A stretch of 42,026 nt of DNA from a virus (taxonomy: Duplodnaviria; Heunggongvirae; Uroviricota; Caudoviricetes), in IMG/VR virus record IMGVR_UViG_2734482779_000005, positions 1 to 42,026 of that record. One strand, 5' to 3'. This document shows, one piece after another, positions 7,891 to 41,650 of this stretch. Numbering within the stretch: the first letter of the stretch is position 1; each line of letters starts with the position of its first letter. The notes beneath the pieces are model-generated. The model saw nothing but the letters and a program-made list of their open reading frames with translations. It was not told where the DNA came from and ran no database searches. The position numbers and the translations under genes were made by a program.

Positions 7891-8565
7891 TTAGGCCTTT
7901 ATTTTGTATCTTCTTGGTTTTCCTGAGAAAATTACTGTACCAATTATAGAGCAATTACCGTTGATCTTAATGTAAGGTTCAGGCCAGTTTGGGTTTAATG
8001 CTTTGAGGTAACGCTGTGTTCCATCTTCTATCAACCGCTTAAAGGTGGTTTCGCCTGTATCGTGCATCAATGCAATAACGTCGTCACCGTGGCAGGCAGG
8101 GACTTCAGGATCTACAAAAATCATGTCTCCCGGGCGGTACTCATCAATCATTGAATCACCAATCACCCGCAAGATATAAGTCATTTCGCCACAGGGTACA
8201 GGGCAGGGATAAGTTTCTGCTGTGCTCAAATCAACCTCAGAATAGCCAACTTCTTTCCATGCTCCGGCCTGTACCCATGATATGACAGGGACTAACGTTA
8301 TTTGTTTGTTAGTAATTGAAACATCAGGTTTTTTTGTGATGTTTGTTGTCTGGTGTTCTTGATCAAGCCATCCGACAGGCAGGTCGAAACATTTTTCGAT
8401 GTGCCGTGCCATGCTGTCACCGATATTTTTAGTAGCACCATCTCCCATAAACCTGCTGGTCTGGGTTGGCTCGCGATCAATCATGGTGGCAAAGGAAGAA
8501 TTCCCGCCAACACCATCTCTCAGTTTTCTGGCGTTAGACCGCCGGATGTCATGGACTGTTTTCAT
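7891..8565 (-). CDS. cI: CI-like prophage repressor (HTH N-domain plus S24/LexA-like autoproteolytic C-domain)
   Basis: 224 aa; C-terminal region (…LRVIGDSMIDEY…GDMIFVDPEVPACHGDDVIAL…) has the Ser/Lys peptidase S24 architecture; divergent from a Cro-like gene across an operator-bearing intergenic region. Confidence 0.8.
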   Translation of the reverse strand: MKTVHDIRRSNARKLRDGVGGNSSFATMIDREPTQTSRFMGDGATKNIGDSMARHIEKCFDLPVGWLDQEHQTTNITKKPDVSITNKQITLVPVISWVQAGAWKEVGYSEVDLSTAETYPCPVPCGEMTYILRVIGDSMIDEYRPGDMIFVDPEVPACHGDDVIALMHDTGETTFKRLIEDGTQRYLKALNPNWPEPYIKINGNCSIIGTVIFSGKPRRYKIKA

Positions 8566-8887: not shown

Positions 8888-9451
8888 ATGAGGCTAACCG
8901 TGGGTAAGCATCACTGGAAAGTAGAAAAACAGCCTGAGTGGTACGTGAAAGCTGTCAGAAAAACTATCGCGGCGTTGCCGGGGGGTTACGCTGAAGCTGC
9001 TGAGTGGCTGGATGTAACAGAGAACGCTTTATTCAACCGCCTTCGTGCAGATGGCGATCAGATTTTCCCGCTGGGATGGGCAATGATTTTACAGCGCGCG
9101 GCTGGCACTCACTACATTGCGGATGCTGTCGCACAGTCTGCTGGTGGGGTGTTTGTATCGCTTCCTGAAATTGAGGAAGTAGAGAACGCCGATATAAACC
9201 AGCGCCTGCTGGAAGTCATCGAACAGATCGGGAGTTACTCAAAGCAGATTCGTTCGGCAATCGAAGATGGGGTAGTGGAGCCACACGAGCAGACAGCAAT
9301 TAATGATGAGTTGTATCTGTCAATTTCGAAGCTCCAGGAGCATGCAGCACTGGTCTACAAAATCTTTTGCGCTCCAGAAAAGAGTGACGCCCGCGAGTGT
9401 GCAGCTCCGGGCGTCGTGGCGTTTTGTGTCTGTGGAGAAACTAACGCATGA
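8888..9451 (+). CDS. Putative early regulatory protein (CII/YdaT-like position)
   Basis: 187-aa ORF immediately after the cro-like gene; family assignment not secure. Confidence 0.35.
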   Translation: MRLTVGKHHWKVEKQPEWYVKAVRKTIAALPGGYAEAAEWLDVTENALFNRLRADGDQIFPLGWAMILQRAAGTHYIADAVAQSAGGVFVSLPEIEEVENADINQRLLEVIEQIGSYSKQIRSAIEDGVVEPHEQTAINDELYLSISKLQEHAALVYKIFCAPEKSDARECAAPGVVAFCVCGETNA

Positions 9452-10284
9452 ACAGTTTAACGGCAAATAACCGTTTGTCGCAACAGCTGGTGGTCAGCGA
9501 CGCTGACCACCTGTTGTTACGGCATGAATGCAGATTACCAAATCACCTGGCTGTAAGTAACCACAGAGAACTTTACCTGACTGTGGGGGGCGAGTTGTGC
9601 AGGAACTTAACCGCTGGTTTCGTGACGGAAGAGGACTTTATGTTCATGTTATTCGTTGGGAGCCAGAAACACAGCGCGTTATCTATCTTCGCAAAGACTA
9701 CCCGCATGAGTGCTTTAGTCCTTTGTGGAAATTCAGGCGTGATTTTGTTGAGTGTGAAGGACCACCAGCACATTGATTCTGCCATTCCGGGACGTTACAC
9801 TGTTCAGGCACCTTATAAAGCGGGTGCCGGGATTGGCGTCCTGGAAATGTTATCGGCGATATATGACGCGCCAGCGTCTTTTTTATCGTCTGCGTCTGTG
9901 CACACCCAAATTATGGTGGGCTGGACGGGGGCACCGAAAGGTGCGCCGGTTTCCGATAACGCCGGTTACGCCAACCCCGTTCAGTTCACCACCAGCGAAA
10001 TTGGCGTTTCCGGTGGTGAAGGTAATTCACTGTTATCGGAGGCTGCCATCATGGCTACTGTCCCAGCCCTCACTCGTCTGAATGATGAAGACTTACATAA
10101 ACTCAGTTATGTAACAACTGCACTACGTGCTCTGCGCAAGGTAACTCTTTCGGATCCGCAGGCGCATCAGGTTTTGGTAGAAACCCTTCTTAACTTGCAG
10201 GCTGAACGTATTCGTCTGGCGGATAAGGCTAATTTTCATATTCACCGTCTCCTGAATATCAGCGGAGGGCATCGTCATGCTTAA
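9448..10284 (+). CDS. Hypothetical ORF (278 aa), coding status uncertain
   Basis: Longest ORF in the interval, but the N-terminal half is low-complexity and an alternative frame (GTG 9597 to tga 9776) gives a more protein-like 59-aa product; see findings. Confidence 0.25.
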   Translation: MNSLTANNRLSQQLVVSDADHLLLRHECRLPNHLAVSNHRELYLTVGGELCRNLTAGFVTEEDFMFMLFVGSQKHSALSIFAKTTRMSALVLCGNSGVILLSVKDHQHIDSAIPGRYTVQAPYKAGAGIGVLEMLSAIYDAPASFLSSASVHTQIMVGWTGAPKGAPVSDNAGYANPVQFTTSEIGVSGGEGNSLLSEAAIMATVPALTRLNDEDLHKLSYVTTALRALRKVTLSDPQAHQVLVETLLNLQAERIRLADKANFHIHRLLNISGGHRHA

Positions 10285-17941: not shown

Positions 17942-18317
17942 GCTGGTTATTGTTGCCTTCGTTGTTAGCGTCATTGGTTCCTTCATCTGGTCTGCTGGGC
18001 ATTACTACAGCAAATATCAGCGCGAAAAGGAGCGTGCTGATGAGGCTGTACGAAATGCTGAATCAGCAACTGCCATTACCCGTAACGTTCTTCAATCACT
18101 GCAAATCATCAATACAGTTATAGAGGCTAACCAGCATGCAAAACAGCAGATCGCACTGGAGTCACAGAGAACCCGGGAAGATATCAAAGTGGCTGTTGCG
18201 GATGATGATTGTGCTTCACGTCATGTGCCTGCTGCCGCTGCTGACCGGTTGCGGAAGTACGCGAACAGTTTACGTACCGATTCCGGCGGTACCGTTGCCA
18301 GCAAGCCTGACTACTGA
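17925..18317 (+). CDS. Inner-membrane spanin Rz-like (i-spanin)
   Basis: N-terminal TM (LVIVAFVVSVIGSFIW) followed by a charged coiled-coil region; directly after the endolysin. Confidence 0.6.
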   Translation: MKLRYKLVIVAFVVSVIGSFIWSAGHYYSKYQREKERADEAVRNAESATAITRNVLQSLQIINTVIEANQHAKQQIALESQRTREDIKVAVADDDCASRHVPAAAADRLRKYANSLRTDSGGTVASKPDY

Positions 18318-38409: not shown

Positions 38410-38973
38410 ATGATTTACGGGTATGTTCGTGTATCAACAAATCATCAGGATACAGAGTTGCAACGTCTTGCACTTGAGTCAGCTGGCTGTGAGCGAATTT
38501 ATGAAGAATATGCCAGTGGCAGAACAGCTAATCGCCCTGTGTTAAAGGAATTAATTTCGGTGATGAAAAGTGGAGATGAGTTGATTGTCTGGAAGCTAGA
38601 TCGGATAGGGAGAAATGTGCTACATGCGCTATTGATGTTTCAAAATCTGCACGAAAAAGGCGTTAATTTTCGGAGTATTACAGATGGTGTAGACCTGAAA
38701 ACAGCAAGTGGTCGCTATAATTTCCGTAATATTCTTTCTGCTGCGCAGTATGAATCTGATTTGAATAGCGAGCGAACTTTAGCTGGTTTGGCTATTGCCA
38801 GATCCAAAGGCCGGATTGGTGGGCGTAGACCGAAGTTTAGCGACGAGCAGTGGCAACAGATGGGAGCGCTCATAGCGGCAGGGAAATCACGGCGTTATGT
38901 TGCACGTATCTATAACGTTGGGCTATCAACCCTATATAAACGATTTCCTGTTACTGGCATTCAAACGAAATAA
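38410..38973 (+). CDS. pin: Serine DNA invertase (Pin/Gin/Hin/Cin family)
   Basis: 187 aa; N-terminal MIYGYVRVSTNHQDTELQ with catalytic-serine context and C-terminal HTH; adjacent to the invertible segment. Confidence 0.85.
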   Translation: MIYGYVRVSTNHQDTELQRLALESAGCERIYEEYASGRTANRPVLKELISVMKSGDELIVWKLDRIGRNVLHALLMFQNLHEKGVNFRSITDGVDLKTASGRYNFRNILSAAQYESDLNSERTLAGLAIARSKGRIGGRRPKFSDEQWQQMGALIAAGKSRRYVARIYNVGLSTLYKRFPVTGIQTK

Positions 38974-38997: not shown

Positions 38998-39040
38998 TTG
39001 TCTAATGTTGGAAGCCGCAGCCACGTCGTATGCAAGAACG
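38998..39040. other. Long stem-loop (agccgcagccacg … cgtgctgcggct) between convergent pin and dinI-like genes; no U-tract
   Basis: Read directly; coordinates approximate; ~12-bp stem with one bulge. Confidence 0.35.
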
Positions 39041-39116
39041 TGCTGCGGCTGGCTGGCGAACTTTCGATAGTGCGAGTATTGAATGATTTCCAGCCGTTAC
39101 CGATTTTACGTGTTAA

Positions 39117-39365
39117 TTAGTGAACAAACCACTCGTCAGCAGATTCCCAGGTATCTTTCAGAGTCTCCTGAACAAAAGTTTTTGCAGAATCCTTATCTGC
39201 GGTGCGTGTAACAGAAAGGCCATCGTTGCTGGTGGCTTTTACGATCACCTCTACATCGTCATAACGTTTACTGATGCGTCGGGTTAATTCTTCCTTTAAC
39301 GCATCCACAGCACCGGTTGGCATTTTAGTCATTTTTTCTTTGGCTATGCAGATTTCAATACGCAT
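39117..39365 (-). CDS. dinI: DinI-like DNA-damage-inducible protein
   Basis: 82 aa; MRIEICIAK…[11 protein letters not shown] parallels E. coli DinI (MRIEVTIAK…TWESADDWFV). Confidence 0.8.
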
Positions 39366-39380
39366 AAAAGTCCCTCTATA

Positions 39381-39424
39381 CTGTGTTTGTATACAGTATT
39401 ATTTTTAACTGTATGGATAAACAG
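39381..39424. promoter_or_regulatory. Two LexA (SOS) boxes upstream of the dinI-like gene
   Basis: CTGTgtttgtatACAG (39381-39396) and CTGTatggataaACAG (39409-39424), both matching CTGT-N8-ACAG. Confidence 0.65.
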
Positions 39425-39426
39425 TG

Positions 39427-40524
39427 TCAAGAGGTCTTATTTCTGCTCCTTTGGAGCTCTTCAAAACGATTATGTAAAGATTTCGGATACAGTTCGGTAT
39501 ATACCTGCCATAGCACGTTTAATGAACGATGCCCTGTGACCTGGGCGACTTCCTCAATACTAAAACCAGCCTCAAATAAGCGACTTGCCCCTTCTCTACG
39601 CAAATCATGGTATCGCAGATCCTTAATACCTAATTTGCTTCTTACCCTCTGAAATCCCGCAGTAACAGAAGTGCTGTTATATGGAAAAATGAATTCCGAT
39701 TTTTTGGGCTGTCGTTGGACGATATCCCAGGCTTCCCCAAGCAAGGCTACTTTCATGTGGTTGCCTTCCTTTTTGCGTGGATCTTTCCTGTCTCTTACGA
39801 GTATAGATTTTTGTTCCTGGTCGAGATCTTCCCATCGTAACCGGCATACTTCTCCGATCCGCATACAGGACCACACAGAAAATTTGAGGATATCAACGAA
39901 CGGAATTTTTGAGCATTTATGAGTAGATCGTTGTTGAAGGCCTTCAATGAGCATGTCCAGTTCATCAGATGCTGGTCTACGATTACGACGGTTTGATTTA
40001 CCAATCAAACCAAGTTTAAGTAGATATGGGCGAGCGCTTTTCGCCGGGTTTGATGTGTAATTAATTCCGTATACAGGTTTGGCCGCATCCAGAACACTGC
40101 CAAGATAACTAACATCGTGGCTGACTGTTGCTGGACCTGCACCAGCGTTGTTTCTTAGCCTGCAATGTTCAATTACGTCATTTTCTGTCAGTTCAGATAG
40201 TTTGATCGCGGAGATGTCACTATCCATAAGCAGTTCCAGCACATATCTTTTAGTACGGCCTGCTTTACCTCCGGCATTTGGGTCATTTAAATATTTGTGT
40301 AGTAAGTCACGGACTGTAAGTCCGTCAACTGCATTTGATGATGGAATGCCATATAGATCTAATTCCATCACTTTCTGTGTTCCCCATGTTTTGGCATGAG
40401 CATGTTTAGGGAATGTTTTGCTTTCCCTGTAAGTGATAACACCTTTTTCTTTGATAATCACATTACAGCGATAGCGTGGTGTGCCATCGGATTTTAGTCG
40501 TTTCTCTATGTTATAGTACGCCAT
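39427..40524 (-). CDS. int: Tyrosine integrase (dusA-specific class)
   Basis: 365 aa; C-terminal catalytic region …HDLRREGASRLFEAGFSIEEVAQVTGHRSLNVLWQVY… (R/H/R/Y signature); divergent from and adjacent to dusA. Confidence 0.85.
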   Translation of the reverse strand: MAYYNIEKRLKSDGTPRYRCNVIIKEKGVITYRESKTFPKHAHAKTWGTQKVMELDLYGIPSSNAVDGLTVRDLLHKYLNDPNAGGKAGRTKRYVLELLMDSDISAIKLSELTENDVIEHCRLRNNAGAGPATVSHDVSYLGSVLDAAKPVYGINYTSNPAKSARPYLLKLGLIGKSNRRNRRPASDELDMLIEGLQQRSTHKCSKIPFVDILKFSVWSCMRIGEVCRLRWEDLDQEQKSILVRDRKDPRKKEGNHMKVALLGEAWDIVQRQPKKSEFIFPYNSTSVTAGFQRVRSKLGIKDLRYHDLRREGASRLFEAGFSIEEVAQVTGHRSLNVLWQVYTELYPKSLHNRFEELQRSRNKTS

Positions 40525-40612
40525 TACACGACCTCGTTATTTCGGGTTCCCATAAAACGTGGGAACCTGTGCGGGAACCTAACGCGAGAAAAATAGCCTG
40601 AAATGTTCAAAA

Positions 40613-41650
40613 ATGCACGATAATCATGAAACACAAAAAATTAATCAAACCAGCGTGATGCCTGAAAAAACTGGTGTTTACTGGAATTCTCGGTTTAGCA
40701 TTGCTCCTATGCTCGACTGGACGGACAGACATTGCCGCTATTTCTTGCGTCTGCTTTCCCGCAGTACGTTGCTTTATACCGAAATGGTGACCACAGGGGC
40801 GATTATTCACGGTAAAGGTGATTATCTGGCGTACAGTGAAGAAGAACATCCGGTAGCGTTGCAACTAGGCGGTAGCGATCCGGCGGCGCTGGCGCAGTGT
40901 GCAAAGCTGGCAGAAGCGCGCGGATATGATGAGATCAACCTGAATGTCGGCTGCCCGTCTGACCGGGTGCAGAACGGCATGTTTGGTGCGTGTCTGATGG
41001 GTAATGCGCAGCTGGTTGCCGACTGCGTGAAAGCGATGCGCGATGTGGTGTCGATTCCGGTGACGGTGAAAACGCGTATTGGCATCGACGACCAGGACAG
41101 CTATGAATTTCTCTGCGATTTCATCAATACCGTTTCCGGCAAAGGCGAGTGTGAGATGTTCATCATCCACGCACGTAAAGCCTGGCTTTCGGGGTTAAGC
41201 CCGAAAGAAAACCGTGAAATCCCGCCGCTCGATTATCCGCGTGTGTATCAACTGAAGCGTGACTTTCCGCATCTGACAATGTCGATTAACGGTGGTATCA
41301 AGTCGCTGGAAGAGGCCAAAGCACACCTGCAACATATGGATGGCGTGATGGTCGGGCGCGAGGCGTATCAGAATCCGGGTATTCTGGCGGCGGTAGACCG
41401 GGAGATCTTTGGTTCCTCGGATACCGATGCCGATCCGGTGGCGGTAGTGCGCGCCATGTATCCGTACATTGAGCGTGAACTCAGCCAGGGGACGTATCTC
41501 GGCCATATTACCCGGCATATGCTGGGTTTGTTCCAGGGTATTCCTGGCGCGCGGCAGTGGCGGCGTTATTTAAGTGAAAATGCCCATAAAGCGGGTGCTG
41601 ACATTAACGTGCTGGAACACGCGCTCAAACTGGTGGCGGATAAGCGTTAA
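40613..41650 (+). CDS. dusA: tRNA-dihydrouridine synthase A (5' end supplied by the prophage)
   Basis: 345 aa; …NLNVGCPS… and TIM-barrel Dus family features; a second divergent copy of its first ~40 codons lies at 1071-1193. Confidence 0.9.

Follow-up and report, generated by a model that had tools for sequence, protein, structure and literature searches.

A prophage DinI-family cassette with two predicted LexA operators and a conserved 3' RNA module

Does a DinI homologue carried by a prophage stand under direct LexA control, and could it in this way modulate RecA-dependent induction? The question is raised by a 42,026-nucleotide stretch of viral DNA (Caudoviricetes; IMG/VR record IMGVR_UViG_2734482779_000005), which as a whole is called the window in what follows, and for which an initial annotation had pointed to two matches to the LexA box consensus CTGT-N8-ACAG between a minus-strand dinI-like gene and an integrase gene. 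From the sequence we consider it probable (about 0.8) that the segment at ~39012-39433 is a self-contained, LexA-repressed prophage 'moron', in which a promoter with two candidate LexA operators, a DinI-family gene and a terminal hairpin stand together.

The predicted LexA operators and their promoter

A sequence scan of the window gave exact CTGT-N8-ACAG matches at 39381-39396 (box 1) and 39409-39424 (box 2), the same positions as in the initial annotation, and in the 42 kb as a whole three such matches are observed, against 0.46 expected. The gammaproteobacterial LexA operator was taken as a 16-bp palindrome CTGT-N8-ACAG within a 20-mer near TACTGTATATATATACAGTA, and the 20-mers were scored with a LexA weight matrix, the check that the initial annotation had suggested. 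Box 1, TACTGTGTTTGTATACAGTA at 39379-39398, agrees with the consensus at 17 of 20 positions and scores 22.6 bits, and box 2, AACTGTATGGATAAACAGTG at 39407-39426, agrees at 15 of 20 and scores 21.6 bits. Both values exceed the median of the training operators, which is 19.9 bits for a matrix that was built from E. coli operators and is approximate. After removal of the most similar training sites the two scores are 22.9 and 20.9 bits, and among 100 Markov-random windows the best score had a mean of 11.5 bits and a largest value of 20.0 bits.

The next-best LexA-like site in the window reaches 14.1 bits. This site, TGCTGGGCATTACTACAGCA at 17993-18012, falls within coding sequence in the lysis/late area and is probably a chance match; 0.4 sites of this kind are expected per window. 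A further CTGT-N8-ACAG palindrome, at 9551-9566, was considered as an operator of the nearby isrK/C4 module (see below) and rejected, as it scores 6.6 bits, has GC-rich flanks and lacks a promoter-like context.

The two boxes lie, as had been described, directly upstream of the DinI-family open reading frame (ORF), whose ATG is at 39365 on the minus strand, the strand to which all the promoter elements belong. A promoter scan gave TTGACA-18-AAAAAT (10 of 12 matches) as the best site of the region and as the sole promoter-like site upstream of the dinI-like gene, with the -35 hexamer TTGACA at 39425-39430 and the -10 region TAAAAAT at 39401-39407. The distal operator, box 2, which reads CACTGTTTATCCATACAGTT on the minus strand, fills the spacer between -35 and -10, while the proximal operator, box 1, which reads TACTGTATACAAACACAGTA, begins 3 nt past the -10 and spans the transcription start, which is expected ~7 nt downstream of the -10. 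The -10 thus lies between the operators, whose centres are 28 bp apart in the window copy. A ribosome-binding site, GAGGGA (39371-39376), is found 5 nt ahead of the ATG. The identical promoter was annotated by the depositors of the GenBank record of phage mEp460, by consensus only and with LexA unmentioned.

The initial annotation also had the boxes overlapping the 3' end of the integrase gene, which proved to be off by 1-3 nt. The neighbouring gene is a tyrosine integrase (39427-40524, minus strand; Pfam PF00589), and its stop codon TGA (39429-39427) is located just past box 2, within the -35 hexamer TTGACA (39430-39425), so the boxes abut the gene and do not overlap it. In different phages the homology between cassettes breaks exactly at the integrase stop codon, which indicates that the -35/integrase stop is a module junction and that the integrase lies outside the cassette.

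To follow the operators beyond the window, we compared 171 fetched loci, which gave 50 distinct upstream regions of 140 nt and encode proteins 60-100% identical to that of the window. For this the divergent variants were queried singly; a contig scan with a single protein gave four near-identical loci, and an alignment-based viral scan gave only copies of at least 99% identity. Two LexA-like boxes, 26-29 bp apart, are present in all 50 distinct variants, and in all 50 the end of the proximal box is 12-15 bp from the ATG. Variation in the alignment is lowest in the columns of the CTG/CAG half-sites, whose diversity is 0.045, compared with 0.158 when 12 promoter columns are drawn at random (P = 0.0026). 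The box interiors, the flanks and the leader vary, and the columns between the boxes are nearly invariant.

A tandem arrangement is also found in a second branch of phage DinI proteins, the MsgA type (MFVELVYDKRN...; L263, L216, L184, L199 and other IMG/VR loci), which is 31% identical to the window protein. In its 17 distinct upstream regions, without exception, tandem boxes 22-24 bp apart flank the -10 element. The chromosomal dinI of K-12 has one operator, the next-best site scoring 4.4 bits. That tandem operators are seen in two phage DinI branches and not at chromosomal dinI suggests that very tight repression in the lysogen has been selected for. Taken together, operators that flank the -10, their presence in every variant, the constrained half-sites and the tandem design of the MsgA-type genes give strong in silico support to the direct LexA control proposed by the initial annotation, and we have little doubt that LexA would bind the two sites.

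The cassette, its DinI-family product and a possible mechanism

The cassette recurs in 226 phage records, with integrases, effector genes or ssrA as its unrelated neighbours. The cassette classes share homology from the -35 to just past the hairpin. Two marks of a phage moron are therefore present, namely a discrete insert beside unrelated flanks and a promoter and terminator of its own round one gene, with the reservation that the hairpin of the window copy has no U-tract. A distinct base composition, a mark of foreign origin that is common and not obligatory in morons, was not found, since the GC content of the cassette, ~44%, resembles that of int and of the invertase gene.

The gene itself (39117-39365, minus strand) encodes a protein of 82 residues that is matched by Pfam PF06183 over residues 16-80 with 70.9 bits (cut-off 24.2) and by the E. 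coli DinI structure 1ghh in the PDB over residues 1-81 with E = 3.7e-13; its identity to K-12 DinI is ~45%. The ORF is clearly constrained at the protein level. The AlphaFold model has a mean confidence (pLDDT, predicted local distance difference test) of 74.3 and the order of elements E-H-H-E-E-H, in keeping with the alpha/beta fold of DinI and its long C-terminal helix, and its best PDB matches are 7ywa_A, which is DinI on the RecA filament, and 1ghh, which is free DinI, with template-modelling (TM) scores of 0.77-0.81. By cryo-electron microscopy, the residues of DinI that contact RecA are L13, L21, W71, W77 and F78, which form a pocket, and the acidic E24, E69 and D76 (PMC9926225). In the alignment all eight positions are kept: L21, E24, W71, W77 and F78 are identical, and the changes L13M, E69D and D76E are conservative. 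On the RecA filament, DinI and lambda CI occupy the same groove (PMC9926225), and the conserved contact residues make it likely that the phage protein binds there as well.

The following mechanism can be proposed. In a lysogen, dimers of host LexA on both operators would keep the sigma-70 promoter shut, and two strong operators would give tight repression. Because the operators are this strong, release would come only after substantial depletion of LexA, and probably late. DNA damage would lead to RecA filaments and to self-cleavage of LexA, the promoter would open and the DinI homologue would accumulate; by analogy with known systems, induction of the promoter by DNA damage is very likely. 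The homologue would then occupy the groove of the RecA filament and stabilise the filaments, in competition with UmuD, LexA and the CI-type repressor of the prophage itself. Such competition would tune the speed or the extent of RecA-dependent cleavage, and the outcome could be delayed or promoted induction, or mainly limited mutagenesis.

The CI-type repressor in question (7891-8565, minus strand) has an S24 autocleavage domain (Pfam PF00717, 92.8 bits), an Ala-Gly at residue 100 and a GDSM serine motif, from which RecA-stimulated self-cleavage is to be expected, and it is likely the RecA-dependent switch that the DinI homologue could influence. Modulation of RecA-dependent induction, the second proposal of the initial annotation, is thus plausible by sequence and analogy. 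We consider it doubtful that prophage induction or mutagenesis would be measurably affected.

The possible consequences are related to how common the cassette is. Its promoter and 5' coding part are present in 1,246 of 5,426 complete E. coli genomes, about a quarter, with one to four copies each, and the carriers include lysogens of Shiga-toxin phages and strains such as O157 Sakai (ECs_3483). If each copy indeed makes its RecA-filament-binding protein solely upon depletion of LexA, these prophages would raise the dose of DinI activity at a late stage of the SOS response, which could shift the timing of repressor cleavage, with release of phage and toxin, and of UmuD processing, with mutagenesis.

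Several points weigh against this picture. The -10 is imperfect, being either TAAAAA or AAAAAT, the -35 is weaker in some cassette classes, and the operator scores come from the approximate matrix described above. At a centre-to-centre spacing of 28 bp the two LexA dimers would sit on different helical faces, and the layout thus gives no indication that they bind cooperatively. In the window copy the U-tract is missing at the junction with the invertase module, and a hairpin of this kind may give leaky termination. No LexA-binding or expression experiments on this cassette were found in the searchable literature, and the whole mechanism is built on sequence and analogy. Finally, induction was not significantly altered when the Gifsy dinI homologues were removed by non-polar deletion (PMC3121763), and for this reason the phenotypic role of the gene may be small or lie elsewhere.

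Other explanations for the two palindromes were also considered. They could bind a factor other than LexA, for example a phage repressor, or be matches by chance. This is highly improbable, since the scores of both sites exceed the median for genuine E. coli operators and the best value from each of the 100 random windows, and since their CTG/CAG half-sites are kept across phages with different immunity regions and integrases; in addition, a matrix scan of the immunity region of this prophage gave no sites that resemble them. Alternatively, the LexA dimers could act mainly as a roadblock to transcription that reads through from the integrase gene, and so shield the cassette together with the convergent late/tail-fibre operon. 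This would agree with the fact that int and the cassette are co-directional, with the int stop inside the -35 and no terminator between them. However, tandem boxes are also present in cassettes that have no upstream integrase, such as those of Sp17 and Stx2c phages, and the feature that is conserved is the position of the boxes relative to the -10 and the ATG, which makes a roadblock very unlikely to be their main role. The arrangement of an operator followed by dinI also resembles the dinI-gfoA operons of Gifsy phages and tum of phage 186, and the cassette could by this likeness be a LexA-controlled trigger of induction, in which dinI is co-transcribed with, or fused to, an antirepressor. Its anatomy contradicts such a role. 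Between the dinI stop and the hairpin (39014-39049) there is no minus-strand ORF of at least 20 residues, which indicates a monocistronic unit and not an operon of the Gifsy/186 type, the protein is DinI-sized and without an extra domain, and the prophage repressor is of the cleavable S24 type. An antirepressor operon of this type was thus rejected on account of the missing downstream ORF and the cleavable repressor, and there is hardly any likelihood left for a trigger function. The LexA-repressed moron is the reading that we prefer among these.

The conserved 3' RNA module

The gene is followed on the minus strand by a module of ~95 nt (39014-39110), which consists of a stem-closed loop and then a hairpin. 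In the 3' untranslated region (3'UTR) segment at 39050-39110 the stem is formed by GGCUGG (39095-39090) and CCAGCC (39056-39051), as supported by RNAalifold, and the loop holds a near-invariant core of 23 nt, CATTCAATACTCGCACTATCGAA (39085-39063), which is present as a single copy in the window. The terminal hairpin, GCCGCAGCACGTTCTTGCATACGACGTGGCUGCGGC, spans 39014-39049, and a short sequence string noted in the 3' element is CAUUCAAUACUCGCACUAUCGAA. The core is ~99% conserved and the surrounding stretch of 30 nt is 90% identical, where the third positions of the coding part are only 47% identical to those of the window. The 3' region of 131 nt folds at -36.4 kcal/mol (z = -3.6). Because RNAalifold could not register the variable terminator hairpin, the variants were folded one by one; the hairpin forms in 54 of 55 variants with differing stems, and a U-rich tail follows in 36 of the 55. 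In most relatives this hairpin can be read from its sequence as the terminator of the cassette.

The same module is common to the window-type and the MsgA-type DinI genes, in spite of the low identity of the two protein branches. An exact-pattern scan of viral contigs gave 90 core sites with sufficient flank, with 22 after MRIE-type genes, 17 after MsgA-type genes and nine after partial genes. At 42 of the 90 sites there is neither DinI similarity nor a LexA box upstream; these sites, many of them at prophage ends, lie in 28 different contexts, including positions directly after a lambda-type sib/tI terminator and abutting the 3' ends of transfer RNA genes. The module is also found in the E. 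coli chromosome. The ecpE-ykgJ spacer of K-12 MG1655 (L173 2184-2495; match to window positions 39023-39174) holds a decayed, unannotated dinI-like pseudogene, in which the 3' module is ~95% identical to the prophage copy, compared with ~78% for the coding part, and in which the hairpin has compensatory changes. This pseudogene is present in nearly all E. coli genomes, and 5,245 of the 5,426 have some match to the query.

In Rfam no family covers the module. The sole Rfam hit is a sub-threshold match to the 3' hairpin of the Shigella small RNA CssrB at 39010-39047 on the plus strand (23.5 bits, E = 0.013), opposite to dinI, which suggests that in some genomes the hairpin ends convergent transcripts as well. 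A plus-strand ORF at 39083-39211, whose ribosome-binding site and ATG are the complement of the core, was rejected as a candidate gene, as its length ranges from 4 to 67 residues and is only six residues in 13 near-identical cassettes. Between the core and the start region of ftsZ the predicted duplex was -6.8 kcal/mol, and 78% of shuffled cores were as good or better; for pairing with its own start region and with the K-12 dinI start region the corresponding values were 23% and 27%.

Could the main selected product of the cassette then be an RNA, with the module as a 3'UTR-derived regulatory RNA or a processing/stability element and DinI as a secondary product? The contrast between ~99% conservation of the core and 47% identity at third codon positions points in this direction, as do the position of the stem-closed loop directly upstream of the hairpin, the stems that vary yet pair, and the persistence of the module both in two DinI branches and in the E. 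coli core genome after decay of the gene. There is also a precedent, since DinR is cut out of the LexA-controlled dinI messenger RNA (mRNA) at its 3' end (PMC10907235). On the other hand, the near-identity of the module could stem from recombination and not from selection, pairing of the core with the start regions of ftsZ, chromosomal dinI or its own gene is no better than that of shuffled sequences, no Rfam family is matched and the DinI ORF is under clear constraint as a protein. Moreover, 42 of 90 copies have neither a DinI gene nor a LexA box upstream, so that the occurrence of the module is not confined to SOS units, and it may simply serve as a common terminator. We therefore regard RNA as the main selected product as improbable. 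It also seems unlikely that the SOS boxes drive a dual-output unit, in which the DinI homologue is made together with the ~95-nt module as a member of an undescribed family of prophage 3'-end regulatory RNAs or processing elements. The module itself may be a terminator shared at the junction of convergent operons, an element for RNA processing or stability, or a regulatory RNA. It is the least explained part of the locus and the likeliest source of something new, and as such might repay experimental work.

Prophage context and comparison with known systems

The window contains a prophage of ~39.5 kb in the 5' end of dusA, with yjbM on the left and dusA-pspG on the right. At its ends the 5' end of dusA is present as a direct duplication of 107 bp, 83% identical (1068-1174 and 40610-40716), and the sequence thus describes a dusA-integrating prophage that supplies a replacement dusA 5' end. 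In the early region, Rfam matches at gathering score were obtained on the plus strand for isrK (9808-9884, 63.7 bits) and the C4 antisense RNA (9909-9996, 82.8 bits), both inside a mechanically called ORF (9448-10284) with an Ash-family match, which suggests an antisense-controlled module of the P1 immI / Gifsy IsrK type. Between 36201 and 38973, genes for the tail-fibre C-terminus and for tail-fibre assembly run in opposite orientations: the plus strand has Gp53-like_C and Caudo_TAP, the minus strand Caudo_TAP and Collar. They adjoin a serine DNA invertase (38410-38973), and by sequence the segment looks like an invertible host-range segment of the Gin/Pin/Cin type.

A search of open-access full text gave no paper that deals with LexA control of the E. 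coli cassette, with its tandem operators or with an RNA from its 3' end; the sole hint from the literature is that the CFT073 'dinI-like' probe c0943 is co-regulated with SOS genes. SOS promoters with several operators include those of lexA, recN, ydjM and the colicin genes, and this arrangement is associated with tight repression. The cassette shares with them more than one LexA operator per promoter, and differs in its layout, with a centre-to-centre distance of 28 bp and the -10 lying in between, unlike the overlapping colicin operators or the 21-bp arrangement of lexA.

The chromosomal dinI of E. coli (1GHH, 7YWA) is LexA-controlled, and its product has the same fold as the phage protein, at the identity of ~45% given above. 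In K-12 the gene has a single operator and a short 3'UTR that leads straight into the terminator, whereas two operators precede the phage gene, whose 3'UTR is long and conserved. For Klebsiella, a dinI mRNA under LexA control has been described in which a conserved unpaired stretch closely precedes the terminator (PMC10907235), which is similar to the layout of the cassette. DinR, which derives from it, is a chromosomal RNA confined to Klebsiella and pairs with the start region of ftsZ (PMC10907235), whereas the phage module has a different sequence and no such predicted ftsZ pairing, and is also found away from dinI genes.

Among phages, Gifsy-1, -2 and -3 each have one LexA box ahead of a dinI-antirepressor operon, and replacement of the box region abolishes induction by mitomycin (Lemire et al. 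2011, PMC3121763). In Salmonella treated with nalidixic acid, the Gifsy dinI homologues were induced 5-23 fold and msgA 3.4-fold (PMC8072944). The dinI-gfoA/gftA/gfhA operons are similar to the cassette in having a prophage DinI homologue right downstream of a LexA operator that overlaps the promoter, and for Gifsy induction by damage has been shown experimentally. They differ in their one box, which is 19 bp from the ATG, in that dinI leads an antirepressor operon, and in their non-cleavable repressor, whereas the cassette has two strong boxes, a single gene and a repressor of the cleavable CI type.

Phage 186, Fels-2 and a phage of Serratia are likewise described as having LexA boxes (PMC7556043), and the dinI-like gene of PhiKO2 is reported to be LexA-regulated in work cited by the same paper. 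PhiKO2, 186 (in the C-terminal half of Tum), Fels-2/PSP3 and the Serratia phage OS31 have in common with the cassette a temperate-phage DinI homologue behind a LexA box, and their dinI-like genes are often divergent from, or beside, tail-fibre genes. These phages are of other types (a linear plasmid prophage, P2-like phages), the boxes described for them are single, and in the 186 group DinI is fused or coupled to an antirepressor. The value of the present cassettes is mainly for annotation, as predicted members of the SOS regulon, because this kind of system is already documented. Compared with these systems, the cassette is a new and very common case of the LexA-controlled phage dinI homologues already described, from which it is set apart by its two strong operators and by the absence of an antirepressor.

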